Shown: positions 16,759-39,404 of the stretch, piece by piece
Position numbering within the stretch: position 1 is the stretch's first letter
Layout: the number at the start of each line of letters is the position of its first letter
Assembly (NCBI GenBank): GCA_947629775.1
Contig: CANRFA010000003.1
Location: forward strand, 48,098-112,097
Direction: 5' to 3'
Origin: an uncultured Oscillospiraceae bacterium
GTDB taxonomy: Bacteria; Bacillota; Clostridia; Oscillospirales; Oscillospiraceae
DNA length: 64,000 bases
Notes under the pieces: generated by a model
What the model was told of the DNA's origin: nothing
Seen by the model: the letters and a program-made list of their open reading frames with translations, nothing else
Databases searched by the model: none
Position numbers and translations under genes: made by a program

Positions 16759-16787
16759 AGTATAGCTTCGAATTGGCAATTTGTCAA
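16759..16787 (-). promoter_or_regulatory. Promoter with box A operator overlapping the -35
   Basis: TTGACA-N17-TATACT; TTGGCAATTTGTCAA at 16773-16787; perfect TTGGCATTTTGCCAA at 16829-16843. Confidence 0.7.
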
Positions 16788-16887
16788 TCTGTAATATCAC
16801 AGTTTTCACGCCGTTCTCTCCTGCCTGATTGGCATTTTGCCAATACGGAAAGGCAGGTCTCCCCGCCTTTCCGTATTTCTCCCCCGG

Positions 16888-17067
16888 CTAAAAGCGCCCC
16901 TGCTCCCTGCACCAGTCCTGGTACTGCTCCTCCTCCCTGGCCCGGACGAGCTCCTCCAGCTCCGGCTCGTCCAGCCAGTTCATCTCCTCCTCCGTGCAGT
17001 ACATAGCCAGGTACCTGTACCGGCTGATGTACATGTCCAGCTCCATATCCGTCATCCTGAAGTTCAT
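16888..17067 (-). CDS. Small acidic phage protein (59 aa)
   Basis: Manual translation MNFRMTDMELDMYISRY...EQGRF; GAAAGGGG RBS. Confidence 0.65.
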   Translation of the reverse strand: MNFRMTDMELDMYISRYRYLAMYCTEEEMNWLDEPELEELVRAREEEQYQDWCREQGRF

Positions 17068-17103
17068 GTTACCATTCCCCTTTCTTTCAGACCCTGGGGC
17101 TGC

Positions 17104-17256
17104 TTACGCAGCCCCCGCCGGGATGTTGTAGGTCCAGGTGCAGCCCGCCATGAGGAGCGCCTCCTGGTAGTTGTCCAGGCTCTCCTGGTACTCCAGCTCG
17201 TCCCGTTCGCGCCTGTCCTCCAGGGTGGCTTCCAGGGTGTTGTAATCGTAGTTCAT
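17104..17256 (-). CDS. Small acidic cassette protein
   Basis: MNYDYNTLEATLEDRRERDELEY; conserved hairpin-RBS leader. Confidence 0.7.
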   Translation of the reverse strand: MNYDYNTLEATLEDRRERDELEYQESLDNYQEALLMAGCTWTYNIPAGAA

Positions 17257-17316
17257 TGTTACCTTCCTTTCTGCCCCGGTGGGGCGTCCGTGTTTCCTGT
17301 TTCCTTCGATGATGGG

Positions 17317-17345
17317 ATTATAACTCTGACCGCCCTTCCTGTCAA
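17317..17345 (-). promoter_or_regulatory. Cassette promoter
   Basis: GGGG-TTGACA-N17-TATAAT; box A at 17397-17411. Confidence 0.8.
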
Positions 17346-17444
17346 CCCCAAAAAGCAACTTTTTCAAAAAATTTTCAAGCGCTTATCGCCTTTTCAATGG
17401 CAATCCGCCAACCGCAGGGGTGGGTCCTGCCCGCCGGGGGTATG

Positions 17445-17681
17445 TCACAGGCCCGGCTTCAGCGCTACCCGGATCCCGAAGAACTGGAACCCGGCTCCGT
17501 CCATTTCCTCGCCGAACTCCCTGGCAATGGCGGGCAGGTCCGTTCCCGGCGCTACCAGAATCTCCACCAGGTCCCCTTCTGCCCGTACTCCCGTAAACTC
17601 CGTGGCCGGCGCTATCCACTGTATGTTGCGCACGACGTTTCCTGTATCGAGGAGCTTCTGAGCCAGCTCCATGCCGTTCAT
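17445..17681 (-). CDS. Phage hypothetical protein
   Basis: GGGAGG RBS; ORF track. Confidence 0.65.
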   Translation of the reverse strand: MNGMELAQKLLDTGNVVRNIQWIAPATEFTGVRAEGDLVEILVAPGTDLPAIAREFGEEMDGAGFQFFGIRVALKPGL

Positions 17682-17845
17682 ATCCGTTACCTCCCTGTAT
17701 GGCCGTCCGGTCCGCCGACGCCCCCAGGTCCTGGAGGCCCGGCGGTTCCCGTCTATTCAGCTGTCTGCTGTTTTCGGCCTCTTATGTTTCCACCCCTGGT
17801 CATTATGGCGAAGCCCCGTCGCCGTACAGCGACGGGGTGAAATGC

Positions 17846-18025
17846 TCAGACCCAGGAGATCTCCAGGTACGTGTTCTCGCCCACCTGGGTCCTGTAGTTC
17901 TCCTTGCCTTCCTTTTTCATCGCCCGGACGGCAGCCCGGAGAGCAGGGTCGCCCACTTTTTCGATCGCTTCCTTACGGAGGATCCGGCGGGTTTCCCCGT
18001 TCTCTGTCCAATAGTAACGAACCAT
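17846..18025 (-). CDS. Small basic phage protein (59 aa)
   Basis: Manual translation MVRYYWTENGETRRIL...LEISWV; promoter TTGATA-N17-TAGAAT at 18058-18086. Confidence 0.6.
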   Translation of the reverse strand: MVRYYWTENGETRRILRKEAIEKVGDPALRAAVRAMKKEGKENYRTQVGENTYLEISWV

Positions 18026-18169
18026 CTATGTTTCCATCCTTTCTTTTGTGTTCGTACATTCTACTCCGTTGGAGCTGATTTATCAACCCCATTTAAAAAT
18101 ATGTCTTCCGCCGGCCTGCGCAGCCCCCGCTGTTTTCACGCACCAGGGGCTGTCAGCCTGACGAGGCCA

Positions 18170-18394
18170 TTACATCTCCCGGATGGCTCTGGGGGTATGC
18201 ATACCAGCCTGGAGCATGGCCCTGAGTACTCTGTCCTGGTCTTCCGTGCAGAGGCCAAGGGCTGCCAGGTTCTCCCGGACAGAGCAGGAAAAGCAGACCT
18301 CTTCGCCGGTAACCCGGCCTCTGACGGTAGGACCCCAGGTGTAATAGCCACACCTGGGGCACTGCCAGAAGGTGGAGATGCGAGGTTCAGCCAT
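18170..18394 (-). CDS. Small zinc-finger-like phage protein
   Basis: CPRC...CFSC; coupled to the GGCT gene. Confidence 0.65.
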   Translation of the reverse strand: MAEPRISTFWQCPRCGYYTWGPTVRGRVTGEEVCFSCSVRENLAALGLCTEDQDRVLRAMLQAGMHTPRAIREM

Positions 18395-18851
18395 TGACTG
18401 CCACCCCCAGATCTCTTCCTCTTTCCCCCATATGCTTGAAGGAGTGCTCCACGGCCTTCCAGATGGCGTCCGGGTTGAATCCCATGTTGCGATACCCCTC
18501 CAGGCAGACAGCTACGTATCCCCGGCTGGGCGGTGCGATCTCCCGGTCCTCGTGCATGATATAGGCGAAGCAGTGCAGCTTGCCTACCCGGATATCCTGT
18601 TTGTAGTAGAACCGGGGGTAGCCCTCGTACCGGTCCAGGTTCCGCTCATCCTCCTCCGTAACCTGCCAGATGGCGACCGGAACCCGCCCGTCCCGCTGGC
18701 GCTCGATGGTCAGATAGCTGCCCGTCATGCTCCCCCGGAACCGCAGGGTCCAGCCCCGCAGGGTAGCCCCCCGGATCAGCCTCGCCCCCGGGCACCGGTA
18801 GGCCATCTGCTCCAGGTTCAGGTTGCTTCCGTATGCGATATAGTATTTCAT
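18387..18851 (-). CDS. Gamma-glutamylcyclotransferase (AIG2-like) family protein
   Basis: YIAYGSNL, RCPGA and LDRYEGYP motifs. Confidence 0.88.
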   Translation of the reverse strand: MKYYIAYGSNLNLEQMAYRCPGARLIRGATLRGWTLRFRGSMTGSYLTIERQRDGRVPVAIWQVTEEDERNLDRYEGYPRFYYKQDIRVGKLHCFAYIMHEDREIAPPSRGYVAVCLEGYRNMGFNPDAIWKAVEHSFKHMGERGRDLGVAVNG

Positions 18852-18906
18852 TGTTACCTTCCTTTCTCCCCCGCACCGGGGGCGTCCCTTCGTTTTTGAC
18901 GATGTG

Positions 18907-18935
18907 ATTATAACTCCATCAGCGTTATCTGTCAA
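18907..18935 (-). promoter_or_regulatory. Cassette promoter
   Basis: GGGG-TTGACA-N17-TATAAT; box A at 18985-18999. Confidence 0.8.
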
Positions 18936-19035
18936 CCCCGTTTGTGGATTTTTTGAAAAAAGTTTTTTGCCCTTTCCGTTTCCGCTGGCGGATTGCCAAC
19001 CCGGAGGCGTGATGTCTCCGGGTTGGCAGGGTATC

Positions 19036-19371
19036 TCAGAGGTTCCGGATAGAAGCCATGTAGTTCCGGTTCTTTTCCATGAGGAAGTTGTACCGCTCCC
19101 GGAAGGCGGGCGCCAGGGGGTGGTTGATGCGCTCCAGGGTCCGGGTCATCTTGTACTGGGACAGGTACCAGTAGGCGTAGGAGCCTCCCGTGATGAAATC
19201 CGGGATGATCCAGGTGGAGACGAACTCGCCCGCCGGGTCCGCCTTGGCGAGCCTGTAGAAGTCCCGCTGGTATTGGGTGGTCCCCCGGTAGTTCGTGGAG
19301 CCCCAGGGGCCGTCCGGGTACTCCTTCAACTCCTTGCTCCTCATTTCCCGGCTGATGTCGTAGGCCTTCAT
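19036..19371 (-). CDS. Cassette protein, paralogue of 29706-30065
   Basis: Shares the KMT..LE...HPLAPAFR.RYN motif. Confidence 0.75.
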   Translation of the reverse strand: MKAYDISREMRSKELKEYPDGPWGSTNYRGTTQYQRDFYRLAKADPAGEFVSTWIIPDFITGGSYAYWYLSQYKMTRTLERINHPLAPAFRERYNFLMEKNRNYMASIRNL

Positions 19372-19434
19372 ATTGTTACCGTCCTTTCTGCCCCCTTAAG
19401 GGGCGGTCCGTGTTTCCCTTCGTTTGATAATGGG

Positions 19435-19463
19435 ATTATACCTCTGAAGGCTGTTTCTGTCAA
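19435..19463 (-). promoter_or_regulatory. Cassette promoter
   Basis: TTGACA-N17-TATAAT; box B variant at 19484-19502; perfect box A at 19516-19530. Confidence 0.8.
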
Positions 19464-19657
19464 CCCGGTTCCGTAACTTTTTTCTATGAATCTTTTGCAT
19501 AGGTTTCTACCCGCTTTGGCAACTCGCCAACCCCCGAGGAGATCGCAGGCCTGCCCATCCTCCTGGGATTTATCGGAAAACCGTCCGTGACCCTCCGATA
19601 AACTGCCGGGCCTGGGTGTGACTGCCACCAGGTCCGGAACGATCCAGTACTGGGCCC

Positions 19658-19879: not shown

Positions 19880-20465
19880 GGTGATACTGGAGGGATTGTA
19901 AGTAGCACCCATATAGCTCTGTTACTGGAGATATTCCATGATAATACCGGTTATGGGTGTACATGGACAATGTATAATATGGCTCCAGTCATGGGTTATC
20001 CTGGCTTTGATAGGTTTTCAACCCTGTTCTGGAGGTTACTGGACCATATGTAAATCAGATTGGAATATGGGTTGAACTGGAGCCATTGTAAATCAGGTCG
20101 CTTTCTGGGTGACACTGGAGAGAATGGAAATTCGGAAAGAATACGGGTTATGCTGGAGTCAATGGAAATCAGGTGACAATATGGGTAGAGCTGGCCTGAA
20201 TGTCATCAGCCTCCGGATTCGTTTTATCCTGGGTATCCTGGTATTCCAACCCATCAACGGGTGTTTACAGCTATCCTGGGTTTATAACCCATTATCGGAC
20301 CTTTATAGCCGTATTGGGCGTAATACCCATTATCGGGTTCTCGACCCATCACCGGGTGATTATAGCCATTTTGGGTTTGTAACCCATCACCGGGTTCCCA
20401 TGGCTGTTTTGGGTCTGCAACCCATTAACGGGTGATTATAGCCATCTTGGGTTGGATACCCATAT
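19880..20465. repeat. Degenerate 38-bp tandem array
   Basis: CTGGAG-like motif at 19887, 19925, 19963 ... 20229 in 38-bp steps, then about five 38-bp units containing TGGGT-N5-ACCCA. Confidence 0.75.
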
Positions 20466-20645: not shown

Positions 20646-21584
20646 TTACATGGAAGCCGCCTGGGTCTGCTGGAGGGAAATGGTGGGCAGGTTCCGGGTC
20701 ATGTGGTACATGGCGTTCTTAAAATCCTCCCCTTCGAACCCGTACCGCCGGAGCCACGCCCGCATGGTATCCCGGGGGCGGTTCGTGGTACAGGGGCTGG
20801 GCGTGGTATTGCGGGCGTATACGCTACCGCATACCATAGCAAGGGAAAACAGCACCCACGCCTTTACCATGCCCGCATGGAGCCCGTTTTTCTTGCCGTT
20901 CCCGGGTTCCTCAAAGTTGAACAGCCGGAACTCAATGGTTCCTTTTGTGAAAAGGGCGTGGAGGTTAACCATATGGTAACGGCTGGGATTGTAGTGTGCG
21001 GTCCGGGGCGTGTAGTGGTAGTTGGCGTACCACAAGTCGCTCACTTCTGCCAGGGACTGGGGGAAGTCCTTGTTCATACCCTCCAGGAAGTCCCTGTCCG
21101 CCCGGGCACAGTAGGTCATCCGGCTTTCCGGAATTCCGATGGCAGTAACTAACAGTTCCTCGTGGCACGCCATCGTATTGGAGAGGTTGCGAATGTCAGT
21201 TGGTCCCAGGTTTTTCCCGTCAATGTGAACGTGTACCCCGCAGCCGTTGGAGGCATAGGACTGCGCCCCCGCGCCCCGGAGGGCACGGATGACTTTCTGG
21301 AGGGTATCCATATCCTGGAGGTACAGGGGAGGCGTTGCCATTTCGCAGCCCCCGCTGTAATCGAGGTCGTGGAGGCTTGCGTCAGACATGAAGCTCCACT
21401 CGCGCCCCTGGGGGTCCGTCACCGCCCACCGGTCGTAGCTGGGTCCCGCATAGCGGACGGTCCCGCCCAACACGTCCCGGGCGACGTTTGCAGCCTTGTC
21501 CCGGGCGATGCCCGTCATTTCAATTTCCACGCCATAGGTGCGGTCCAGCATATCACGCTGGATTTTCATGGAGAGGTTCGTCAT
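20646..21584 (-). CDS. Putative amidoligase (Amidoligase_2 / COOH-NH2 ligase type)
   Basis: YGVEIEM, SDASL, CEMATPPL, CGVHVHI and KGTIEFRLF. Confidence 0.88.
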   Translation of the reverse strand: MTNLSMKIQRDMLDRTYGVEIEMTGIARDKAANVARDVLGGTVRYAGPSYDRWAVTDPQGREWSFMSDASLHDLDYSGGCEMATPPLYLQDMDTLQKVIRALRGAGAQSYASNGCGVHVHIDGKNLGPTDIRNLSNTMACHEELLVTAIGIPESRMTYCARADRDFLEGMNKDFPQSLAEVSDLWYANYHYTPRTAHYNPSRYHMVNLHALFTKGTIEFRLFNFEEPGNGKKNGLHAGMVKAWVLFSLAMVCGSVYARNTTPSPCTTNRPRDTMRAWLRRYGFEGEDFKNAMYHMTRNLPTISLQQTQAASM

Positions 21585-21643
21585 TGTTGCCATTCCTTTC
21601 TGCCCCCGTGGGGGGCGGTCCGTGTTCCCTGTTTACGTTGTAC

Positions 21644-21672
21644 ATTGTAACTCCGTCCGGCTTTCTTGTCAA
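21644..21672 (-). promoter_or_regulatory. Cassette promoter (amidoligase)
   Basis: GGGGG-TTGACA-N17-TACAAT. Confidence 0.8.
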
Positions 21673-21763
21673 CCCCCTTTTATAAGTTTTTTCAACTTTT
21701 TTACCGGAACGTTGACGCCCGCCGGGGTCTTGGGGGGCTTGTGTTCCCCCCTTGACTGTCTAC

Positions 21764-21792
21764 ATTCTAACTCGCACCGCCTTTTCTGTCAA
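21764..21792 (-). promoter_or_regulatory. Second cassette promoter with no ORF of its own
   Basis: TTGACA-N17-TAGAAT; box B at 21811-21831. Confidence 0.75.
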
Positions 21793-22137
21793 CCCCAAAT
21801 GATAACTTTTTTCATGCAACTTCTGCATGAATTCGGGGGTTTCTATCGATTCCATGCATATATGAACGCCGGGGCCTGGTCCGGGGCTTAAATTACCATA
21901 AACTTGTAAAAATGGGGGGGCGGGGTCCCGACGCTTCCAGTATCACCCATTTTGGGCATAGTTACCATTTGTCCATCAACACCCATACGGTCCGTTTCCA
22001 CCCAAATGGGTTCTTCTTCCGATTTTCCATGTATCTGACATGGCAGCTATCACCCATGGGCGCTCCACCCATTTTCCATGGAACTGACATGGGTGTTTTC
22101 GGTAATCTCCAGCCCGCTGTCAGTTTTCCGTTATTCT

Positions 22138-22809
22138 CCATTGGGTCTGTTGCCCATGGACCATAACGTTAAACGACCCAGGAACCTCCATTGGGTTTCT
22201 GTCCCATGGATCATACCGTCACTAAACCCAGCTTTGCCCAATGGGTTCATAACCCATGGACCTTACAGTCAGACAACCCATCCTCCTCCAATGGGTTTAC
22301 AACCCATGGAGCATATCGTGAAACGACCCAGGTTTCTCCACTGGGTCTGTTGCCCATGGACCGTACCGTCAGGCAACCCAGGAACCTCCATTGGCTCTAC
22401 AACCCATGGGTCGTATCGGGATTTAACCCATCATCCTCCATTGGATTTACAACCCATGGGTTGTACCGTAAAACGATCCATCCTCCTCCAATGGGTCCCT
22501 GACCCATGGGTCGTGCCGTTAAGTAACCCAGAAACACCCACTGGGCCTCCAACCCATGGGTCGTAGCGGGATTCAACCCAGGTTTGCCCAATGGATTTAC
22601 AACCCATGGACCGTATCGTCAGACAACCCAGGTTTCCCCAATGGGTGCCTGACCCATGGGTTGTACCGTAAAACGACCCAGGAACCTCCATTGGGTCTAC
22701 GACCCATGGACCATAGCGTTAAACAACCCAGCTTTCCCCAATGGGTCTACAACCCATGGAGCGTACCGCCATTCAACCCATCATCCTCCAATGGGTTCCT
22801 GACCCATGG
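22138..22809. repeat. 50-bp tandem array, block 1 (13 full units plus a partial unit)
   Basis: CCAWTGG every 50 bp from 22138 to 22788; unit CCAWTGGGT-N5-ACCCATGG...ACCCA. Confidence 0.95.
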
Positions 22810-23145
22810 ACCTTGAACCCATTTTGCCGAAAACTGACATGGACCAATTATCCATGGGCCTTCCTCCCATTTTCCATCAAACTGACATGGAAAATCGGTC
22901 CATGGGTGATACAGCCAATCTCCAGAGAACTGACATGGCTATATCCCCCATGGGTTGTTAACCCAATCTCCAGGAAAATGACATGGGTATTTCCTCCATG
23001 GACCTTATCCCCAATTTCCATCAAACTGACATGGCGAAACAACCCATGGGTGAACGACCCATTTCCCATCGAACTGACATGTAAGATAAACCCATGGGTT
23101 ATATCGGTAATTCCCATCGAACTGACATGGGTGCAAGGCCCATGG
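22804..23145. repeat. 48-bp tandem array (7 units)
   Basis: CCATGG at 22804, 22852, 22900, 22948, 22996, 23044, 23092 and 23140, with AACTGACATGG between. Confidence 0.95.
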
Positions 23146-23189
23146 AGTTTTTCGGTAATCTCCAGCCCGTTGCCAGTTTTCCAGTATCC

Positions 23190-24048: not shown

Positions 24049-24165
24049 TATATTTCATTCCTTTCTGCCCCTATGGGGCGTTCCCGTTACGTTATGGGGC
24101 GTTCCCGTTTCCCGTTTTGCCCCATGCCCGCCCCGGGGCGTATGCCCCGGGGCTATCCGTTTCTT

Positions 24166-24471
24166 TCAGATGTTGCACGGCATACAGCCGTCCCACAGCG
24201 CCCGCTCTTCCCGGTAGTCTTCCATTTCCTGGAGGATATCCCGGTAGGTATCCGTCATGGCGTCCGCCAACGTCCGGGCGATGTCAGTAGCTTCCAGCCC
24301 CATGTCGTCCGCCCATTCGTTCACGATATAGGCGACGTCCTCCTCGTCGTATTCGTGGGGGGCGTTTTCCACGTTGTACAGCCGGCGGTACAGGTACCCG
24401 GCGTTCCCGTTGTCCACGATGTCCCGCACGATAGCCCGCGCCCTGTTCATCATCCTGTTCATGTTCTTCAT
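24166..24471 (-). CDS. Acidic cassette protein (VNEWA family)
   Basis: Conserved leader; D/E-rich. Confidence 0.75.
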   Translation of the reverse strand: MKNMNRMMNRARAIVRDIVDNGNAGYLYRRLYNVENAPHEYDEEDVAYIVNEWADDMGLEATDIARTLADAMTDTYRDILQEMEDYREERALWDGCMPCNI

Positions 24472-24550
24472 TGTTTACCGTCCTTTCTGCCCCCTATGGG
24501 GCGTTCCCCCCGGAAAGGGGGGCGCTGTTTGTTTCCTGTTTACGTTGTAC

Positions 24551-24579
24551 ATTGTAACTCCACCCGGCCATTCTGTCAA
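24551..24579 (-). promoter_or_regulatory. Cassette promoter
   Basis: TTGACA-N17-TACAAT; box B at 24598-24618; box A at 24630-24644. Confidence 0.8.
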
Positions 24580-24687
24580 CCCTAAATGATAACTTTATTC
24601 ATGCAACTTTTTCATGAATTCCATTACCCGTGGCGTTTTGCCAACCCGTGCCCGTAAAGGCACGGGCTGGCATTTCCTGGAGGGGGC

Positions 24688-25077
24688 TTACGCTTCCCAG
24701 TATCTGGAGTCGTCCCCGTCCTCCTTGCTGTAAATTTCGTCCAGGTGCCATTCCAGTTCCTGGGCATCCCGGTTCCACTTCCTGGAAAGGGCGCCATACC
24801 CGGCGGACGCCAGCCACGTCGCCTGGGCATCCGTAAATTCCCAGACGGCTTTCACAAAAGCGGGGTCCCAACTGTCCAGCCCCTCTTCCGTGTAGTTCTG
24901 TCCGTCAAGGGCGCCGGGGTCCGTTTCCGCCATGCGGACGAAAATCCGGGGATACACTTCCCACACGAATTCGTCCTCCCGCCCCCTGTCGTGGAAAAAC
25001 CCGTGGCTGTTTTCCAGTACAGCGCCCCAGTCAATGGGGTCGAGGGCGTTCATGCCGTTCATGTTGATGGCGTTCAT
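24688..25077 (-). CDS. Acidic cassette protein
   Basis: Conserved leader; D/E/W-rich. Confidence 0.75.
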   Translation of the reverse strand: MNAINMNGMNALDPIDWGAVLENSHGFFHDRGREDEFVWEVYPRIFVRMAETDPGALDGQNYTEEGLDSWDPAFVKAVWEFTDAQATWLASAGYGALSRKWNRDAQELEWHLDEIYSKEDGDDSRYWEA

Positions 25078-25143
25078 TGTTTACCGTCCTTTCTGCCCCC
25101 GTGGGGGGCGTCCGTGGGGTTCCTGTTCCTGTTTACGTTGTAC

Positions 25144-25172
25144 ATTCTAACTCCGTCCTGCCATTCTGTCAA
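25144..25172 (-). promoter_or_regulatory. Cassette promoter
   Basis: GGGGG-TTGACA-N17-TAGAAT. Confidence 0.8.
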
Positions 25173-25425
25173 CCCCCTTTGCTAACTTTTTTCAAAAAAA
25201 TTTTCATGCGCATGCCCGTTGCCGTTGCCGGAACGGCAACTGACAAAAGCTGGACCGATAGGATCCGCCCTTCCATCCGCCCGTATTTTCCATTTACTTG
25301 GAATGGGTTCAATCTCCATGGACCGATTTTCCATGCCCTTTCGTTGGAAGCGCCTGCCATATATCCAGTAGCTGCCATGGTCCATCTGTCTGTCAGAATC
25401 GGCAGTTTCTGGAGGTCCATTTTCT

Positions 25426-26203: not shown

Positions 26204-26331
26204 CCCCCCAGAAACTCCAGTCCCTGGCAGCCCTGGAGTACATTTGCCCAGGCCCCGGATTCCGTTGGCGTTCTGCCAATATCTGCCTCGATTCATGCAA
26301 AAGATTCATGAATAAAAGTTGGCTTTTGGGG

Positions 26332-26360
26332 TTGACAGAAAAGCCCCGCAGAGTTAGAAT
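26332..26360 (+). promoter_or_regulatory. Cassette promoter
   Basis: TTTTGGGG-TTGACA-N17-TAGAAT; box A at 26265-26279; box B at 26292-26312. Confidence 0.82.
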
Positions 26361-26448
26361 ACCAACATCGAAAGGGAACACCCCTCCACCACGAACCGCC
26401 CCGCAGGGGCGGGCACGGACGCCCAAAGGGCAGAAAGGAAAGATAACA

Positions 26449-26703
26449 ATGTCCACCATCAACAAGCTCATGAACGCCATCCGCACCGCCACCACCGGCA
26501 TGAACGCCCACGACATCGCCCCCCTGGAGAACTACCTGGGCTACCTCGTGGAGGCTATCCACGGCGGGGACATGGAGCCCTGCGACGCCTACCTCCTGGC
26601 TGCGGAAGCCGTCAACGTGTGGGCGGATGACGTGAACGCCCCCACCGCCACCGTGGATACCATGGTGGACACCCTGGTGGCTACCGCCCTGACGCTTGCC
26701 TGA
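26449..26703 (+). CDS. Cassette protein (VNVWA family)
   Basis: Conserved leader; start MSTINK. Confidence 0.72.
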   Translation: MSTINKLMNAIRTATTGMNAHDIAPLENYLGYLVEAIHGGDMEPCDAYLLAAEAVNVWADDVNAPTATVDTMVDTLVATALTLA

Positions 26704-27162: not shown

Positions 27163-27270
27163 CAGAATCATCCATCCCGTTGGCGGGTACAGCCCTCCAG
27201 GGATTGCCATCCCGCCATATCCTCCGAGAAGGCGCATGAAAATTTTTTCGAAGAAAGTTGCTTTTTGGGG

Positions 27271-27299
27271 TTGACAGACTAGCCAGTCAGAGTTAGAAT
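27271..27299 (+). promoter_or_regulatory. Cassette promoter
   Basis: TTGACA-N17-TAGAAT. Confidence 0.8.
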
Positions 27300-27357
27300 A
27301 CCATCATCGAAGGGAAAGACAGGGACGCCCCACAGGGGCAGAAAGGTAAGGTAATAT

Positions 27358-27603
27358 ATGGACGTGAATTGCAGGAAGATGTTCGCCTCCGCTGTGGAGA
27401 CCAGCCTGAAGGGGCTGGACGTCCCCAGCCAGGCCGTCAACGAGCTGGTGGATACCATGTACCGGACGGTGGAGATGGGCGAAATGGAGGGCTGGGGGGA
27501 CCTGGAAATGTTCCGGCGGATCCGCTGGAGCGCCAGGGACTGGCAGGAAGGCCAGGGACTGTATATCCCCTGGCTGGAGGATGATATGGCTGCCCTCGTG
27601 TAA
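27358..27603 (+). CDS. Acidic cassette protein
   Basis: Conserved leader. Confidence 0.72.
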   Translation: MDVNCRKMFASAVETSLKGLDVPSQAVNELVDTMYRTVEMGEMEGWGDLEMFRRIRWSARDWQEGQGLYIPWLEDDMAALV

Positions 27604-27714
27604 AGCCCCCCCAAAGCCACCCCCGGTAACGACCCCGGTATACGCCGGGGGTGGCAATCCGCCATCCATGCCTGAAACTTTCTGAAATTTTTCAAAGAAA
27701 GTTACCTTTTGGAG

Positions 27715-27743
27715 TTGACAAAAGCGGAGCCTGGAGCTATAAT
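27715..27743 (+). promoter_or_regulatory. Cassette promoter
   Basis: TTGACA-N17-TATAAT; box A at 27651-27665. Confidence 0.8.
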
Positions 27744-27808
27744 CACCAGCGTAAACAGGAAGGAAACAGACGGACCGCCCCCCTGCGGGGCAGAAAGGAA
27801 CGGTAACA

Positions 27809-28222
27809 ATGAAGAACGAAAACAGACTGGACAGCCTCTTTGAGGAACTGGTACCCGCCAGCGGAAAGGCGGACAGCCTCGCCGGGGAGCTCGTCCGGGC
27901 GACCTCCCGGATTGGGTTCCGTTTCCTGAATGACGGAGACCAGCTGGGGCGGGGCTACGGGCGGGAAACGTGCAACCCCGCCGGGCGCTTTATCCTGGCG
28001 AAGACGCCCCGTGAAATTGGCGACCTCGTAGCTGCCATGTGGTACACGGAGGACGAAAACGCCTACGAGGCGCAGCTGGATACCCTGGTGGGCAAAGTTG
28101 CGGAGTACGTGGAAACGAACCCCGGCCTGCGCAACACGCCCACGGAGGATATGTGGAGCTTCCGGGATACCTGGGAGGACGTGGACGAAGACGAATACGA
28201 GGACGGGGACGAGGACTGGTAA
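27809..28222 (+). CDS. Phage/MGE hypothetical protein with an acidic tail
   Basis: VPASGKADSLAGELVRA..RIGFRFLNDGD; ends DVDEDEYEDGDEDW. Confidence 0.78.
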   Translation: MKNENRLDSLFEELVPASGKADSLAGELVRATSRIGFRFLNDGDQLGRGYGRETCNPAGRFILAKTPREIGDLVAAMWYTEDENAYEAQLDTLVGKVAEYVETNPGLRNTPTEDMWSFRDTWEDVDEDEYEDGDEDW

Positions 28223-28361
28223 GCACTGGATCCCCCGTTCCGTCAGGGAAAGCCCCCTGCCATCCCCGGCACAAGGATACACAGCCCGCCGGGGATGGCA
28301 ATCTGCCAATATCAGCCAGGATCCATGAAAAAGATTCATGAATAAAAGTTAGCGTTTGGGG

Positions 28362-28390
28362 TTGACAGGATTATCCCCCGGAGTTATAAT
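28362..28390 (+). promoter_or_regulatory. Cassette promoter
   Basis: TTGACA-N17-TATAAT; box A at 28295-28309; box B at 28322-28342. Confidence 0.82.
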
Positions 28391-28453
28391 TCCATTGTAA
28401 ACGAAAGGGAAACAAACGGACCGCCCCAACGGGCAGAAAGGCAAGGTAAAACC

Positions 28454-28780
28454 ATGGAGAAGTTCAACAGCTACACGACCAGCCACATCGTCCCCTGCGT
28501 GAAGGAAAACGCCCCCGGCATGGACGGCGACGACCGGCAGCTCCTCTACCACGAACTGGACCGCCTCGTGGAGTACTTCATCGAGAACGACCCCCCGGAG
28601 GATGATATCCGCCCCTGCGTTATCGAAACCTTGAACGAGTGCGTGGACATGAACGACCCGGACGTTATGAACGCCCTGACGGACAAGCTGGAGGATGCCT
28701 TTATGGATATCCTCTACGAGGAGAAAATGTGGCGCCTCGAAGCCCGCCTGTGGCACGGACCCAATCCCTGGGGCATCTGA
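28454..28780 (+). CDS. Acidic cassette protein
   Basis: Conserved leader; D/E-rich. Confidence 0.75.
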   Translation: MEKFNSYTTSHIVPCVKENAPGMDGDDRQLLYHELDRLVEYFIENDPPEDDIRPCVIETLNECVDMNDPDVMNALTDKLEDAFMDILYEEKMWRLEARLWHGPNPWGI

Positions 28781-29018
28781 GAGCCCCTGGGATCCCCCCG
28801 GGAGAACAGCCTCCCGGGGGCGGGAACTGGAGGCTGCTGTGATATGGCCCATTTCCTGCCAGAATCGGCAGCCCGGCCAGGTATTTCCAGCCCCTCCCCC
28901 TGGGACAACGGCAGGATGGTACGAAGCTTCCGAAAATCGGCAGTTCCGGATGCTGCTGTCAATCCGCTCTATCCGCTAACTTCCCGAAAATTTTTTCTGA
29001 AAAAGTTTACTTTTGGGG

Positions 29019-29047
29019 TTGACAGGAAAACGGTTCAGAGTTATAAT
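29019..29047 (+). promoter_or_regulatory. Cassette promoter
   Basis: TTGACA-N17-TATAAT. Confidence 0.82.
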
Positions 29048-29115
29048 CCTATCATCAACAGGGAACAGGAAACACGGACCGCCCCGCAGACGGGGCAGAA
29101 AGGACGGTAACAAAT

Positions 29116-29442
29116 ATGAACATCGCCAATATCAACTGGGACGCCATCTGCACCCCCTCCGCCCTGTACGGCAAGGAGTGGACCTACCTGCGGGGGGAGG
29201 CATGGAAGAAGGACTTCCTGGACGAGGTAGAGAAATACAACAGCATGGGCAAAGCCCCCTACCACGTCACCCCAGTGGACACCGGATTCCGCAGCGACAA
29301 CGTCTTCGTTGTTTCCCGTATCTGGAACCTCGTCCTGAAGCAGGCGGAGCTCCTGTATGAAAACGGATACGACGACCTTGGCGAAATCTGGATGGACGAC
29401 GCCGTAGGGCTGGAGTCCTACATGGATACCTTCGAGGACTGA
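29116..29442 (+). CDS. Acidic cassette protein
   Basis: Conserved leader. Confidence 0.75.
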   Translation: MNIANINWDAICTPSALYGKEWTYLRGEAWKKDFLDEVEKYNSMGKAPYHVTPVDTGFRSDNVFVVSRIWNLVLKQAELLYENGYDDLGEIWMDDAVGLESYMDTFED

Positions 29443-29610
29443 TCGAAGGTATCCCCTTCCAGGGGCCGGGACCCATTTCCTGGGGGGCCAGGGACGCCGG
29501 CCCCCACTCCGGAAAATGGCGGGGCCTGTTGCGGGCCCGGATGTTGCCGTTTTGCCATTCATCCCAGAAACCTATGCAAAAGATTCATGAATGAAAGTTG
29601 CTTTTTGGGG

Positions 29611-29639
29611 TTGACAGAATTAGCCCCCAGAGTTAGAAT
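29611..29639 (+). promoter_or_regulatory. Cassette promoter
   Basis: TTGACA-N17-TAGAAT; box A at 29544-29558; box B at 29571-29591. Confidence 0.82.
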
Positions 29640-29705
29640 AGCACCATCAAAAGAGAGCAGGAAACAAGCGGACCGCCCCACAGGGGCAGAAAGGTAAGGT
29701 AAACA

Positions 29706-30065
29706 ATGGACAGGAACATCTACCCCATCTGGAACGCAATGGCTACCCGCAGTGACGAGACCCAGGGGAACATGTACGGGCGGTACGAAGGGACCCCCCA
29801 GTTCCTGGAGGACTTCCGCCACCTTGCGGAAGTGGACCTCAAGGAGGGCGACGGCTTCTACGTGAAAACGTGGATGCAGCCCGCCATCCCCGGGCTGTGG
29901 ACCCTGGACCAGCTCAAAATGACCCACATCCTGGAGGGCATGGGACACCCCCTCGCCCCCGCCTTCCGGCAGCGCTACAACGAAACCCTGGACCTCCTCC
30001 GGGTCCGGCTCCGGGAATACCGGAGCCTCCTGGAGTCCCGGCGCAGCCGGAAGCACGCAGCCTGA
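29706..30065 (+). CDS. Cassette protein, paralogue of 19036-19371
   Basis: Shared HPLAPAFR.RYN motif. Confidence 0.75.
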   Translation: MDRNIYPIWNAMATRSDETQGNMYGRYEGTPQFLEDFRHLAEVDLKEGDGFYVKTWMQPAIPGLWTLDQLKMTHILEGMGHPLAPAFRQRYNETLDLLRVRLREYRSLLESRRSRKHAA

Positions 30066-30377
30066 GCCAATACCCCCCCGCCCGGCGGAGCCCTGCCGGG
30101 CGGGGTTGCCGTTTTGCCATCGTGGATGCAGATTCATGCAGAAGATTCATGGATTTAATTTACATTCGGGGGATACTCAGCCAGATCCAGGAAGGTGGAG
30201 GATCCTCCGATAATTCCCATCCGCCGGCAGATGGGTTATGTTTCGTGTACTGTTAAATGCTTCCAGCGCTGCGACGCCGGCCCCCCTGGCTCCTGTTTTC
30301 CCCGAAACTGCATGATGGGCTGTCGGGGCGGGCAGGCGGGCATGAAAAAAGGGAGGTGGATGTCCACCTCCCCGTTA

Positions 30378-30638
30378 TCAGACAGCCTCCTGAAGGCTGA
30401 TGGGTCCCCGCTCCTGGTCAGCCCGGAACGCCGGGATGGAGTCAGCCAGGGACTTTTCCACGCCGGGTGGGAGATACTTGGAGATTCTCCCAACCAGGCA
30501 GGGGTAGGAATACGACCGCTTCTCCCCCAAAGCCTCCTGGATGACGTTCAGGCACTCGTCTTTGCTGTACAAGCGGCTGATATCCTCCTCGCTCAGGTAC
30601 ACGTGCAGGTTCAGGGTTACGGAATAGCACTCTTTCAT
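30378..30638 (-). CDS. Phage hypothetical protein
   Basis: ORF track; AAGGAAGG RBS. Confidence 0.55.
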   Translation of the reverse strand: MKECYSVTLNLHVYLSEEDISRLYSKDECLNVIQEALGEKRSYSYPCLVGRISKYLPPGVEKSLADSIPAFRADQERGPISLQEAV

Positions 30639-30674: not shown

Positions 30675-31325
30675 TCAGGTCCGCACGCTGATTGTGTAAT
30701 CCTCCTCGAAGGTGATTCCGGGAATCCGGACAGTGCCCCGGGACTGCCGGATGAGTTTCATGACGGCAGCGGTGTCTACCGGGCGAATCTCGACCCCGTT
30801 CACAGAGGTGGGGACCAGGCTGGGATCCACGGAAACAATACGCCAGGTCTTCGTATGCCGGATCCCTTCCGCCTCCGCCGGACGGACAGCGGTGGGCTGC
30901 ATACCCTCCAGCACCTCCGCCTGCGTTTCCGCCCAGTCTGCGGTAGCGTTATCGCCCCGCTCTCGTGCCATCGCAGCCTCCTGGCGGGCCTTCTCCGCAG
31001 CCTTGAGGGCTTCCATGCGGACCGCCTCCTGGCGGGCCCTGGCAGCCTCCTGGCGGGCCCTGGTAAATGCCCCCATCTTCGCTTTGATGGTCTTCTCCGC
31101 CTCCGCAAACGGACCCATCATCTGCTTCCTGCGCTCCATGACTGCCTGATAAGCCGTCCAGGCAGCGCTGCGCAGGGGCTCCCAGTACTCTTCCGCCTTT
31201 TTCCCCGCTGCCTTTACCTGCCTCGCAAGCTCCCCCGCTGCCCGGTACTCCTCGTCGTTGGTAACCTGCATGGCTCCAACCTGCGCCAGCAGAGCCTCCT
31301 GCGCTCCCATCGTGGCCATCTCCAC
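30675..31325 (-). CDS. Phage coiled-coil protein
   Basis: Ala/Glu/Arg-rich helical sequence; AAGGAGG RBS. Confidence 0.7.
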   Translation of the reverse strand: MEMATMGAQEALLAQVGAMQVTNDEEYRAAGELARQVKAAGKKAEEYWEPLRSAAWTAYQAVMERRKQMMGPFAEAEKTIKAKMGAFTRARQEAARARQEAVRMEALKAAEKARQEAAMARERGDNATADWAETQAEVLEGMQPTAVRPAEAEGIRHTKTWRIVSVDPSLVPTSVNGVEIRPVDTAAVMKLIRQSRGTVRIPGITFEEDYTISVRT

Positions 31326-31378
31326 TGCGGATGCCTCCTTTCAGAATGTGCCCTCGTTACCTCCGGGGCGGGCCGTTC

Positions 31379-31537
31379 TCAGTTGTGGGTGGCGTTGAAG
31401 TTCTCGATCGCCCACCGGTTGCCGGTTGCGTACACCGCCCGGCGGGTCCGCTCATACACGCTCCCCGTTGTCCGTTTCAGCCTCCTGCGCTCCGGCTCCT
31501 CCTGCTCCTTCCGGTCCTTGTCGCTGTACTTCTTCAT
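31379..31537 (-). CDS. Small phage protein (52 aa)
   Basis: Manual translation ...VYERTRRAVYATGNRWAIENFNATHN; promoter TTGACA-N17-TATACT at 31582-31610. Confidence 0.65.
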   Translation of the reverse strand: MKKYSDKDRKEQEEPERRRLKRTTGSVYERTRRAVYATGNRWAIENFNATHN

Positions 31538-31678
31538 ATCAGGGTCCTCCTTTGTCTGTGTCCCCCCTTCAGGGTGATGACAGTATAACTCTGAAGGCCG
31601 TTTGTGTCAACCCCAAATGTAAACTTTTTTATCGGAAATTTTTGTGCGAACTCACAATGATGATGGCATTCTGCCAAT

Positions 31679-31909
31679 CTACACCCAGCACAGCCCGCCC
31701 GTTTGCACAGGCTGGTCCTGGATGACGGGGTCCAGCCTGCGCATCAGGGTATCGAACCGGGCAGCAGCCTGGAGCCGGTACTGGGGCCAGATATACTCCC
31801 CCATGGGGTTGGCTCCCGTGATCTTCACATCGCCCAGGGCGGTACACCGGGCGACAAACAGAGCCTCGTATATGGAGGCAAGTTCTTTTTCGGTAACTTC
31901 AATGGTCAT
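31679..31909 (-). CDS. Phage hypothetical protein
   Basis: ORF track. Confidence 0.5.
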   Translation of the reverse strand: MTIEVTEKELASIYEALFVARCTALGDVKITGANPMGEYIWPQYRLQAAARFDTLMRRLDPVIQDQPVQTGGLCWV

Positions 31910-32029
31910 ACAGATTTCCCTCTCATTCCATTCAGGTGATTCTCCGATTCTGTATCGGGCGGAGAAACAGGCGGTCAGGGTCTGACCGCCTGGCGTGAGC
32001 GCTCCGGGCTCCCATCCAGGAGCGGGGAC

Positions 32030-32230
32030 TTACATCAGTCCTCGGCTCCTCGCTTCATCCTCATAGGCCTGCGCTGCCCGCAGCCCCTGCGCCACCAGCT
32101 CGTCCGGCAGGGTATCCGCTACGAGGCGATAGGCATCACGGGTCCCGGCAGCCATAAAGAGCACCTTTTCGTCATCCGCTTCCATGGCTTCCCGGCGGAA
32201 TTCATTGTAGGTCTTCGTTACCATCTTCAT
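32030..32230 (-). CDS. Phage hypothetical protein
   Basis: ORF track; GAGGGAG RBS. Confidence 0.62.
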   Translation of the reverse strand: MKMVTKTYNEFRREAMEADDEKVLFMAAGTRDAYRLVADTLPDELVAQGLRAAQAYEDEARSRGLM

Positions 32231-32274
32231 TCTCTCCCTCTCCCCGTAAAGCCGGTAGGTCAGCTTTCTGCGTA

Positions 32275-32499
32275 TCAGGCGAGGATGTAGTTCCGCAGGG
32301 TTTCGTCCCTGCAGTCCTTATCCAGCCAGACCTCAAAACCCGCCGGGTTGCGCTCCTCAATGACATCCATCAGCCACGCCCGCATGATGGGAATCTCCGG
32401 GGTGTGCCGGAGCCTGGAGGTTTCCTCCCAGATGTCCAGAAGGCTCTCCGTGCTCCGGCTCTTCAGGATGGCCGGCACCTTCGTTGCGCTGTACTTCAT
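32275..32499 (-). CDS. Cassette protein
   Basis: Conserved leader; TTGACA at 32587-32592. Confidence 0.68.
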   Translation of the reverse strand: MKYSATKVPAILKSRSTESLLDIWEETSRLRHTPEIPIMRAWLMDVIEERNPAGFEVWLDKDCRDETLRNYILA

Positions 32500-32708
32500 T
32501 GTTACCTTTCCTTTCTGCCCTGTTGGGCTCTGTCTTCTGTTGCCTGTCCCTCATTGCCCCTATAGATTACCTCTGATTGTCTTTCTTGTCAACCCCCTTT
32601 TGTAAGTTTATAAGAAAAATTTTTCAGCTCCATCAACGTCACATTGCCGTTCCGCCATCTGCGCATAAAAAAAGGCCCGCAGCCTGTAACAGCTGCGGGC
32701 TTCTGCGT

Positions 32709-33155
32709 CTACGCTTCCCGGTACTGGGCGGTGAAGGCGGTGGCGATCCCACGGGAAACGGGCAGCACCTGCTCCTCGCCTTCCACGAAGAAGTACCGGC
32801 CTTCCCGGTCCAGGTACAGCTCCGTTCCCGGCTCATCGTTGGTCGCAGAGGAGGCCACCAGGGTAGCCTTGCCGGTATCGTAGGTCACTCCACGGACCCG
32901 CTTTTTGATCCGGTTCGCTTCCTCCTTGGGCGTATCCTCTGCGCCGTCCCCGTCTTTCCCGCTGGCTACAGGGACGAGGGCGACCTCGTAGCCAATCTTC
33001 CCAACCGCCCGCACAAAATCGTCAAAGCGGAAGTTGTTTTCCGCCAGCTTCCTGGAGAGCTTCTGAGGCGTCCATCCCAGAATGCAGGCAAAATCCGCAT
33101 ACTTCATGCCCTTGCTTTTCAGCGCAGGCCCCACCAGATCCTTGGCAGTTACCAC
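32709..33155 (-). CDS. XRE-like HTH protein with a C-terminal YDT domain
   Basis: MKYADFACILGWTPQKLSRKL looks like an HTH; GTG start after AGGAG; TTGACA at 33224-33229. Confidence 0.6.
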   Translation of the reverse strand: MVTAKDLVGPALKSKGMKYADFACILGWTPQKLSRKLAENNFRFDDFVRAVGKIGYEVALVPVASGKDGDGAEDTPKEEANRIKKRVRGVTYDTGKATLVASSATNDEPGTELYLDREGRYFFVEGEEQVLPVSRGIATAFTAQYREA

Positions 33156-33286
33156 TTGAACCAGTCTCCTTTCAGTCTTGCTGCCTGATGCATACCGGTA
33201 ATATAGCATGCAGACGCCTATTCTGTCAACCCCCTTTTGATACCATCCGGGGATCTTTTTTCTGGCTGTTGCATCGTGCCAGGCTT

Positions 33287-33556
33287 CTATGTTCGCCTCT
33301 GGACAACATCCCACCGGTATCTGTCCGTTTTCTTCCGCTTGGCCTTGCCGGGCCTCCGTATGGTCAGCCGGGTGCTCCCCAGGGAGTATTCAGTCGAAAT
33401 CTCGCACTCGTCCGGCCACTTCGCCATGGCCTCGTCGATCACCCGCTGGGTTTCGGACCCTACCAGCCCCCACGCATCCCGTTTCCTGTTCAGGCTGGTC
33501 TCCGTTTTCCCGGCGGGGGCAGTTGCGATGACAACGTACATATCATCCACCTCCAC
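33287..33556 (-). CDS. Phage hypothetical protein
   Basis: ORF track. Confidence 0.55.
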   Translation of the reverse strand: MEVDDMYVVIATAPAGKTETSLNRKRDAWGLVGSETQRVIDEAMAKWPDECEISTEYSLGSTRLTIRRPGKAKRKKTDRYRWDVVQRRT

Positions 33557-33839
33557 TCATCTGGCGGAACATCTCCTGGATATCTACGGAGGTGATGGAG
33601 ATGTCGCTGAGGAGAAAGTGATAAAGCTCCGTCTCATCTTTGGAAAACCTGCTCTCCAGGTGGTTGCACATGGCCTGGACCCCGGCCATGATAACCGGCC
33701 AGTCATTCCGGGAGAAGCCGGTAAAGATCGTGAGAGTCCCCTTGGCGCTTTCCGCTGTGGCCTCCGCAATGATTCTGTTCATTCTGTCGAGGTCCCCCTC
33801 GTTGGAGGCCCTGGTCGCATCATTCAGGATATGTTTCAT
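33543..33839 (-). CDS. Phage hypothetical protein
   Basis: Promoter TTGACA-N17-TATAAT at 33897-33925, with box A overlapping the -35. Confidence 0.62.
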   Translation of the reverse strand: MKHILNDATRASNEGDLDRMNRIIAEATAESAKGTLTIFTGFSRNDWPVIMAGVQAMCNHLESRFSKDETELYHFLLSDISITSVDIQEMFRQMSGGG

Positions 33840-33981
33840 TGTTTCCCCTTTCTGAACCCTGAGTGTGAATCCGCCCCAGTTCCGTTTGATGCCATGATTA
33901 TAGCTCTGAATGGGCAATCTGTCAACCCCGGATGATAAAAAGATGAACTTTTTTATCGGAAATATCCTCCGGGCGCTAACT

Positions 33982-39399: not shown

Positions 39400-39404
39400 C
39401 TGTG

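Follow-up and report, generated by a model that had tools for sequence, protein, structure and literature searches.

Why would a prophage carry a long battery of near-consensus promoters, each placed in front of one to three very small genes? The question is raised by a 64,000-nucleotide stretch of DNA (the window) that covers positions 48098-112097 of contig CANRFA010000003.1 (here C3), part of the 3.07-Mb, 62% G+C draft genome of a gut-type member of the Clostridia, an uncultured Oscillospiraceae bacterium (GCA_947629775.1). An original prediction, made from the letters of the window, had listed 19 promoters here and interpreted them as a shufflable array of early-gene cassettes built on one repeated regulatory module. 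We find that the array is a real, large, and unusually well ordered feature that resembles the promoter-early stem-loops (PeSLs) of T4-type phages and lies in a temperate phage of a Gram-positive host. It consists of ~16 copies of one composite module of ~200 to 230 bp. The sequence tips the balance modestly toward reading the locus as the accessory end of a temperate myovirus, where ~16 single-promoter units would belong to one lytic-early regulon, co-regulated and kept silent in the lysogen.

A consensus scan of 15.5 to 35 kb returned 31 promoter-like sites, compared to 9.9 ± 2.9 in shuffled sequences. Nineteen sites scored 10 to 12 out of 12, of which 18 had been listed in the original prediction and one, at 15930, lies outside its range. 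The remaining listed promoter, at 32564, which had been credited with a weaker -10 box, has TTGACA at 32592 and TAATCT and was recovered with the module model described below (49.9 bits), so that all 19 listed promoters exist. Seven of the 19 scan sites are perfect TTGACA-N17-TATAAT. Sites scoring at least 11/12 number 17 in the 18.2-kb array, a density of 9.3 per 10 kb; outside the array, the density is 0.47 per 10 kb over the remaining 86 kb of the prophage and 0.45 per 10 kb over the remaining 2.9 Mb of the genome. Because the host DNA (2.96 Mb) itself carries 18 perfect TTGACA-N17-TATAAT sites, the phage sites use the host's own consensus and sit at its optimum. We are confident that these are functional host-type promoters heading small, real genes.

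The order and geometry of the module were derived from alignments, folds, and distance measurements. A long GC hairpin (-22 to -38 kcal/mol, usually without a U-tract, its base reading GCCAN...NTGGC in five copies) directly follows the preceding gene. Next comes the palindrome TTGGC-N5-GCCAA, the center of which lies ~59.5 bp before the start of the -35 box in five modules and 56.5 bp before it in two, or at about -95 from the transcription start predicted by sequence; it was placed automatically in these seven modules, and the remaining positions come from visual inspection of the alignment. An A/T-rich element follows, of either type A (GAAAATTTTTTnGAAAAAG, UP-element-like) or type B (TTCATGnAAAAGATTCATGAAT, TTCATG-N9-CATGAA), and then AAAGTT-N9-(T)TTGGGG precedes the -35 box. 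The core is TTGACA-N13-RGAGT-TA(T/G/C)AAT with a spacer of exactly 17 bp and a G at -14. Downstream are a purine-rich initial transcribed region of type 1 (CCATCATCGAAGG) or type 2 (GTACAACGTAAACAGG), a short leader hairpin, GCCC(C)-loop-(G)GGGC, with freely variable loops (two copies have two such hairpins), and the end of the leader, CAGAAAGGAnGGTAACA-ATG. The leader is 49 to 82 nt long, and each module faces, at a constant distance, an ATG with GAAAGGA before it.

The -35 and -10 hexamers and the 17-bp spacing are the most invariant columns of the alignment, and this core is the sole part common to module and non-module promoters. Genome-wide, the sub-elements are nearly private to the locus (12/13, 14/15, 8/9, and 4/4 occurrences). 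The alignment confirms the shared flanks proposed earlier, namely, AAAGTT before the -35 box, RGAGT before the -10 box, and a common leader. Two other proposals needed adjustment. One module does serve most of the sites, as 13 full and 3 partial copies, but the promoters at 16787, 18086, and 33229 lack it; and the GC hairpin assigned to each cassette is present but is in fact two per module, a long one that lies 5' of the promoter and a short one within the leader.

A sequence-only covariance model (R1) was built from the 13 full copies, which score 61 to 100 bits. Its additional matches are the three partial copies (32592, 31610, and 21792; 45 to 50 bits), a weak copy at 53.6 kb, and a leader-only copy at 24051-24113, before the second gene of one cassette. 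Beyond the window, the model also matches C3:146502-146609 (-), where a consensus promoter with the upstream part AAAAAACTT..TTGGGGTTGACA lies in the 3' end of an 850-amino-acid (aa) portal-NUDIX fusion gene and before a 74-aa zinc-ribbon-like open reading frame (ORF).

The units of the array are given here in window coordinates, with ORFs from a simple caller trained on the phage and with the isoelectric point (pI) of acidic products.
16759..16846 (-): promoter without module, 11/12; perfect ATTGGCAAAATGCCAAT palindrome ~48 bp upstream and a half-site in the spacer.
17254..17412 (-): full module m17345, type A, leader 1, 95 bits; genes 17104-17256 (50 aa, pI 4.1), then 16888-17067 (59 aa, with its own AGAAAGGGGAATGGTAAC-ATG leader).
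18058..18086 (-): promoter-like site without module, 10/12, no model match; gene 17846-18025 (59 aa, basic).
18849..19002 (-): full module m18935, 75.5 bits; gene 18387-18851 (154 aa).
19369..19530 (-): full module m19463, type B, leader 1, perfect TTGGCGAGTTGCCAA, 90.9 bits; gene 19036-19371 (111 aa), a paralogue of 29706-30065.
21582..21734 (-): full module m21672, shortened upstream part, 77 bits; gene 20646-21584 (312 aa).
21742..21860 (-): empty cassette m21792 (partial module), type B upstream part, GGGGGG..CCCCCC leader hairpin, 44.8 bits; 91 bp separate it from the -35 box of m21672, with no credible ORF in between.
24469..24646 (-): full module m24579, type B, leader 2, with a pair of leader hairpins, 85.6 and 18.8 bits; genes 24166-24471 (101 aa, pI 4.3), then 23800-24048 (82 aa), with paralogous products; 23800-24048 sits behind the promoter-less leader copy 24051-24113.
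25075..25239 (-): full module m25172, type A, leader 2, palindrome in the symmetric variant GTTGCCGTTCCGGCAAC, 98.7 bits; gene 24688-25077 (129 aa, pI 4.2).
26265..26451 (+): full module p26332, type B, leader 1, two leader hairpins, perfect TTGGCGTTCTGCCAA, 87.5 bits; genes 26449-26703 (84 aa), then 26866-27162 (98 aa, acidic paralogue family).
27204..27360 (+): full module p27271, type A, leader 1, 89 bits; gene 27358-27603 (81 aa, pI 4.3).
27648..27811 (+): full module p27715, type A, leader 2; gene 27809-28222 (137 aa, pI 4.2, hyper-acidic tail).
28295..28456 (+): full module p28362, type B, leader 2-like, 87 bits; gene 28454-28780 (108 aa, pI 4.2, acidic paralogue family).
28952..29118 (+): full module p29019, type A, leader 1, degenerate palindrome, 100 bits; gene 29116-29442 (108 aa, pI 4.3).
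29544..29708 (+): full module p29611, type B, leader 1, 97.9 bits; gene 29706-30065 (119 aa), a paralogue of 19036-19371.
30066..30172 (+): half-module with long GC hairpin, GTTGCCGTTTTGCCAT, type-B element GATTCATGCAGAAGATTCATGG, and ..ACATTCGGGGG; it ends where the -35 box is due.
31535..31677 (-): partial module m31610, upstream part and core full, leader different, 48.7 bits; genes 31379-31537 (52 aa), 30675-31325 (216 aa, phrog_10477), and 30378-30638 (86 aa); an intrinsic terminator at 30350-30373 closes the unit.
32497..32660 (-): partial module m32592, weak -10 box TAATCT, typical hairpin and Shine-Dalgarno (SD) leader, 49.9 bits; genes 32275-32499 (74 aa), 32030-32230 (66 aa), and 31679-31909 (76 aa); a canonical terminator lies ahead of it at 32675-32700.
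33200..33229 (-): promoter without module, TTGACA-N18-TATATT with TG, no model match; gene 32709-33155 (148 aa, helix-turn-helix [HTH]-like, phrog_38278), a candidate regulator.
33837..33990 (-): full, divergent module m33925, other upstream part, other hairpin at the same leader position, 61.7 bits; genes 33543-33839 (98 aa) and 33287-33541 (84 aa).

In the 13 full modules, the first ORFs encode 50 to 154 aa, apart from one of 312 aa, and several units have a second or third ORF. The size range of mostly 50 to 155 aa that had been proposed is close to what is found, with a 312-aa amidoligase and a 216-aa protein as exceptions. The pI is 4.3 or lower for 8 of the 13 first-gene products. Most battery products are ORFans, with no match in Pfam, PHROG, PDB, NCBIfam, or PADLOC, and only three match Pfam or PHROG families with a named function.
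20646-21584 (-): Amidoligase_2 (PF12224, 4e-49).
18387-18851 (-): GGACT/AIG2-like gamma-glutamyl cyclotransferase fold (PF06094, 3.4e-12; phrog_2520).
30675-31325 (-): phrog_10477, "exonuclease" (PHROG match).
A PDB sequence search, PADLOC, and NCBIfam added no matches for the battery genes. The sole match of the 148-aa HTH-like product is an unnamed PHROG, a peptide-pattern search returned no viral relatives of the amidoligase, and no homologue besides itself was found for the 119-aa cassette protein (29706-30065). Pairing of a GGACT/AIG2 cyclotransferase with an Amidoligase_2 protein has been reported in conflict regions of phages and conjugative elements. In this array, the cyclotransferase (18387-18851) and the amidoligase (20646-21584) each have a separate module.

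The 137-aa product has homologues on six IMG/VR contigs (45 to 61% identity) and in a syntenic relative of the phage, G448 (38%), always behind other promoters or within operons. Its predicted structure is a helical domain (predicted local distance difference test [pLDDT] score of 89) with no structural neighbor in the PDB and no named structure among its matches, the only viral neighbors being uncharacterized. Since this protein has homologues and a confident predicted fold, the cassette genes look real. One of the homologue-bearing contigs, L054 (IMGVR_UViG_3300037453_000145), is unrelated and carries three copies of its own promoter module (TTGACAATTATAAGATAATAGTATATAAT) at 2044, 3937, and 4422, with an ATTAT..ATAAT dyad in the spacer. 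The variable region of G448 likewise has three copies of its own, different promoter (TATTGACTTAGGAGGTAGGTAAGTTATAGT) at G448:C3 105035, 120920, and 138269, one of them directly upstream of the homologue of 27809-28222 (137 aa).

The array belongs to a complete integrated temperate myovirus prophage of ~104 kb. The G+C fraction drops from 0.65-0.69 to ~0.57 at ~15.9 kb of the window and stays low through to the contig end. This low-GC part splits an Fe-alcohol-dehydrogenase (Fe-ADH) gene, pieces of which are found at both prophage ends; the left junction is at ~15.85 kb (..GVACAMMLPIVMEYN..), and the final 117 contig bases read ..AHSMAHTLGAVYDTPHGV... The Fe-ADH split point lies between ..YDTPHGV and ACAMMLPIVMEYN.. 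(window ~15845-15930 and C3:167866-167982), and TTGCACAAATTRACAYAAGG-like sequence is present at both junctions. The 11/12 promoter at 15930-15902 (-), just within attL, is directed outward into the 99-aa 3' fragment of the Fe-ADH gene. At the right end of the prophage are a large serine integrase and divergent genes for CI-like (135 aa; C3:165885-166292) and Cro-like (77 aa; C3:165478-165711) HTH proteins; past them lie a RecT recombination module and then TerL, portal, protease, sheath, and baseplate genes. Window positions 57 to 64 kb hold lysis and tail-fiber genes, and 35 to 57 kb hold MT-A70, ThyX, dUTPase, HNH, and PAPS-reductase genes and many small Cys-rich paralogues. Nearly all prophage genes are on the minus strand. 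The cassette array (15.9 to 34 kb) forms the far end of the prophage, adjoining attL.

The palindrome links this far end to the lytic switch. Its perfect form, TTGGC-N5-GCCAA, occurs five times in the 3.07-Mb genome, and all five sites are within the prophage: three in the array, one in the leader of the 53.6-kb promoter, and one behind the cro-like gene. Of the 118 genomic occurrences of the relaxed form TGGC-N5-GCCA, 9 fall within the 18-kb array. The cro-side site directly follows the stop codon and hairpin of the cro-like gene, the same hairpin-plus-palindrome layout as that before each cassette promoter, and the cro promoter itself, TTGACA-N17-TATAAT, follows an A/T-rich region and has one half-site within the spacer. 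The palindrome shared with cro ties the cassettes to the lytic early circuit and suggests that a phage regulator acts on them. Two other assignments were tried and rejected: a sigma-54 reading of the palindrome, in which GG and GC are 6 nt apart and not 10, and an N/boxB-type reading of the leader hairpin, the loops of which vary freely.

The link to cro also bears on the main rival, which holds that the locus is a moron or lysogenic-conversion array, i.e., a set of constitutive accessory genes for superinfection exclusion or host fitness rather than lytic early genes. A strong promoter of its own and flanking hairpins for each unit correspond to the classical moron layout, and the array adjoins attL at the prophage edge, has a GC content below that of the host, and is absent from the related G448, as add-on genes would be. 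Against this, the palindrome common to the lytic cro transcript suggests co-regulation with early lytic genes, and PADLOC returned no defense match for ten of the larger battery proteins. When the translations of the small acidic products were read by eye, neither a signal peptide nor a membrane segment was obvious, which sets these products apart from many exclusion morons, and at least 15 maximal-strength promoters kept on in the lysogen would be costly. We consider a moron array unlikely, although it survives better than the other rivals.

For the preferred reading, a co-regulated lytic-early array, the units would have been assembled by whole-cassette duplication, capture of genes from elsewhere in the phage, and exchange between modules, and what we take to be sequence traces of all three are seen. 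Duplication is indicated by paralogous cassette genes, which imply that whole cassettes were copied: 19036 and 29706 form a pair (41% identity, E value of 8e-15), the modules of which are mutual nearest neighbors in the upstream segment, and 23800, 24166, 26866, and 28454 form an acidic family of four. Capture is suggested by the homologue of 30675-31325 (phrog_10477), which adjoins RecT in five places of four related prophages. Here, the RecT-side slot (C3:162490-164094) has no phrog_10477 gene and a 12-bp gap between the neighbors, and the gene lies 85 kb away, under m31610 within the array. As for exchange, upstream types A and B pair with leader types 1 and 2 in all four combinations, and the nearest-neighbor modules differ between segments, whose distance matrices are barely correlated (Mantel r of -0.06 to 0.32, mostly not significant). 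The half-module ends exactly between GGGG and the expected -35 box, which points to a rearrangement breakpoint inside the module. Six cassettes (26.3 to 30.1 kb) are inverted relative to nearly the whole phage.

The relative G448 is syntenic (TerL at 69%; 40 to 69% identity over immunity, replication, structural, and lysis genes), but its variable region has only 3 proteins in common with 16 to 57 kb of the window and no such array. Because the nearest relative shares only these 3 proteins, gene order is not invariant. The comparison of cassettes among related prophages that the original prediction had proposed holds at long range only, as no closer relatives turned up within the genus, among the related prophages, or in collections of viruses, genomes, and metagenomes, and G448 (TerL at 69%) is too distant to show the precise insertion points of cassettes. 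The claim of a shufflable array therefore stands in part: mosaic modules, an empty cassette, a half-module, paralogues, and a relocated gene support it, but the modules are only 62% identical and no structural variants were seen. Whether exchange took place at the modules or duplication alone was at work is, in our judgment, evenly balanced.

Plain duplication and divergence would explain the array as one amplified cassette, the copies of which stay alike through purifying selection on cis elements and provide no recombination handles. Two paralogue families account for 6 or 7 genes, the paralogues 19036 and 29706 carry the modules most alike in their upstream part, module identity is 62% with conservation focused on functional motifs, and other assemblies lack structural variants, all of which this explanation accommodates. 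It fits poorly with the fact that most cassette genes are mutually unrelated, with the occurrence of every combination of upstream and leader type and the shift of nearest neighbors by segment, and with the half-module breakpoint at the core promoter, the empty cassette, and the captured RecT-module gene. We regard it as a distinctly less probable account, a step behind the moron array. A view of the repeats as mainly processing, antitermination, or structural elements (nut/put-like hairpins or replication/partition sites) rather than promoters could draw on the conserved hairpins on both sides of each core, on the hairpin and palindrome after cro as in lambda nutR, and on the three tandem-repeat arrays interleaved with the cassettes, but it is very improbable given that the -35 and -10 boxes and their 17-bp spacing are the most invariant part and the sole one shared with non-module promoters, that the hairpin loops vary freely, unlike boxB, with no Rfam match, and that each module invariably points at an ORF start with a constant SD distance.

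As a lytic-early regulon, the array would work as follows. Host sigma-A RNA polymerase would start at each TTGACA-N17-TAnAAT core, aided by the UP-like element and the -14 G. The leader, with its purine tract, GCCCC/GGGGC hairpin, and fixed SD context, would give unrelated genes a uniform translation start and probably also a common mRNA stability or a common handle for a regulator. The palindrome, together with the long GC hairpin, may act as an insulator and a candidate binding site for a regulator encoded by the phage, either the CI-like or the Cro-like protein or the HTH protein of 148 aa. This arrangement would keep the promoters silent in the lysogen and allow them to fire jointly and early after induction or infection. 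In the weakest step, the acidic helical ORFans, the amidoligase, and the GGACT enzyme might act on host proteins; that the products serve host takeover or counter-defense is a proposition on which we lean slightly to the negative side. Early timing and an anti-defense reservoir, both proposed in the original prediction, are plausible readings. A bolder version, which we hold to be doubtful, is a plug-in socket in which one regulator, bound at the dyads at -95 and behind cro, insulates and silences ~16 promoters and the promoter-leader segment is a landing pad that captures genes. If that were true, captured genes such as the RecT-adjacent one would gain instant, uniform early expression, and cassette capture and expression would proceed without an integrase in a temperate Clostridia phage.

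Several findings weigh against the regulon and its shuffling. The intergenic promoter between the CI-like and Cro-like genes has a half-site only, and a position of about -95 is an unusual place for simple repression. The left arm of the palindrome overlaps the stem of the long hairpin in several modules, so that a structural role in RNA or DNA is possible, and the symmetric variant TTGCC..GGCAA fits such a role as well as it fits a protein site. Stems of the leader hairpins are almost invariant, and covariation consequently cannot support them. No defense, named anti-defense, or host-takeover family was among the matches of the battery products. Module identity averages 62%, and the stretches shared without mismatch have a median length of 13 bp and reach 29 bp at most, a divergence that makes frequent RecA-type exchange unlikely. 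Five fragments of the phage in three other ENA assemblies are 99.3 to 99.98% identical to it and have no structural variant; their only difference is a 13-bp gap in a contig of 2.4x coverage, which is probably an assembly error.

Judged by its layout, the array has its closest functional analogue in the PeSLs of T4-type phages (Arbiol et al. 2010, PMC2839356; Comeau et al. 2014, PMC4122927). These are mobile regulatory cassettes, and recombination between their copies yields indels, replacements, and mini-circles (PMC2839356). The analogy to PeSLs and host-takeover regions drawn in the original prediction fits, with a sigma-70-type promoter, an A/T-rich upstream part, G/C stem-loops, an SD sequence, ORFans, and a hypervariable region. 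Both systems have many copies of a motif of at least ~100 bp (A/T-rich region, strong sigma-70-type promoter, G/C-tract stem-loop, SD, and start codon) before ORFans in a hyperplastic region. The rearrangement junctions of PeSLs lie in the motif and, to judge from the traces described above, may do so here as well. In the present array, the promoters score 10 to 12/12 by sequence, with a 17-bp spacer and either GAAAATTTTTTnGAAAAAG or TTCATG..CATGAA; the stem-loops, which in PeSLs act as terminators or attenuators and often have polyG/polyC tracts, are represented by the 5' hairpins of -22 to -38 kcal/mol, most without a U-tract, and GCCCC/GGGGC in the leader; and the copies are intergenic, before ORFans, in a region of which G448 shares only 3 proteins. 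PeSLs occur in T4-like lytic myoviruses, whereas this phage is temperate, with a serine integrase and CI/Cro, in a Clostridia-type host of 62% G+C. The module described here is also longer and more ordered (two hairpins, a palindrome, two upstream elements, and a conserved leader), its copies are less alike (62%), and its sequence is unrelated, so that it does not belong to the PeSL sequence family.

Other known systems share single aspects. The host-takeover module of the strictly lytic Bacillus phage SPO1 lies in the terminal redundancy, its genes are transcribed right after infection and shut off host functions, and its Gp44 product is an acidic DNA mimic that inhibits RNA polymerase (Stewart et al. 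1998, cited in PMC8208478 and PMC6873191). The two loci have in common dense small genes in a Gram-positive phage, use of host sigma-A (predicted here), and very acidic products, but the present phage is temperate, and no protein homology to the SPO1 products was found. Morons are single accessory genes with their own promoter and hairpin in lambdoid and other temperate phages (PMC2839356); the units here also have their own promoter and hairpin and are absent from a related phage, but morons have no common flanking module, whereas ~16 units share one here. In Cluster A mycobacteriophages, a monomeric repressor binds asymmetric 13-mers, the stoperators, which have been shown to block elongation (PMC9283540, PMC6550527). 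They too are short phage-specific sites repeated at intergenic positions and behind genes; the site here, in contrast, is a 15-bp dyad and a candidate regulator site. The start-associated sequence and its extended form (SAS/ESAS) in Cluster K mycobacteriophages are a conserved motif before many unrelated starts, often after an inverted repeat with a variable spacer (PMC3203893), an arrangement resembling GCCCC-loop-GGGGC plus CAGAAAGGAnGGTAACA, which also occurs promoter-less at 24051-24113. The sequence and host phylum differ, and the element here is usually fused to a promoter. An integron was rejected: no IntI-like gene was found among the window proteins scanned at 15.9 to 57 kb, and each cassette has its own promoter.

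Outside this phage, none of the collections searched yielded a relative of the module. The pattern GGGGTTGACA-N13-GAGTTAnAAT was found elsewhere as single unrelated promoters, mostly in metagenome-assembled genomes of Clostridia or Oscillospiraceae, with no second array. A promoter-plus-leader pattern returned 86 loci from metagenome and viral contigs, none above 34.5 bits (real copies score 61 to 100). The module model had no match in 50 species of the same genus or in 7 genomes with related prophages, megablast against GenBank phages and an Rfam search gave no match, and 79 viral loci that share the MT-A70 methylase found next to the array contained no more than 2 consensus promoters per 20 kb.

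If the promoters behave as predicted, the array is a compact natural library of ~30 small genes with the same strong expression signals. It would then point to the high-dose proteins of a gut Clostridia phage, for example, host-takeover or counter-defense factors, which are almost unexplored in such phages. For high-GC Firmicutes, the module also provides well-delimited expression parts, namely, a UP element, a consensus core, a leader, and an SD. Should the shuffling be real, the PeSL principle of regulatory repeats as shuffling handles would extend from lytic T4-like phages to a temperate Gram-positive phage, with a candidate operator layer added by the module.

Several features near or within the array are recorded here. 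Just upstream of it lie two ORFs, and downstream of the MT-A70 methylase are three tandem families of Cys-rich paralogues (110 to 166 aa, 25 to 52% identity) without Pfam matches.
33982-34482: 166-aa ORF, weakly GIY-YIG/UvrC-N-like (Pfam E value of 4e-4).
34785-35402: 205-aa ORF, labeled earlier as ImmA-like without the HExxH motif.
36227-37623, 39025-40523, and 42501-43191: the three Cys-rich families.
Between cassettes there are noncoding tandem-repeat blocks in which no ORFs were called and the units of which have ACCCA/TGGGT-type cores in common.
20038-20453: period of 38 bp.
22136-23511: periods of 50/48/50 bp.
25417-25740: period of 35 bp, located between the divergent modules 25172 (-) and 26332 (+).
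These blocks could be iterons, a centromere-like site, or regulator-binding arrays.

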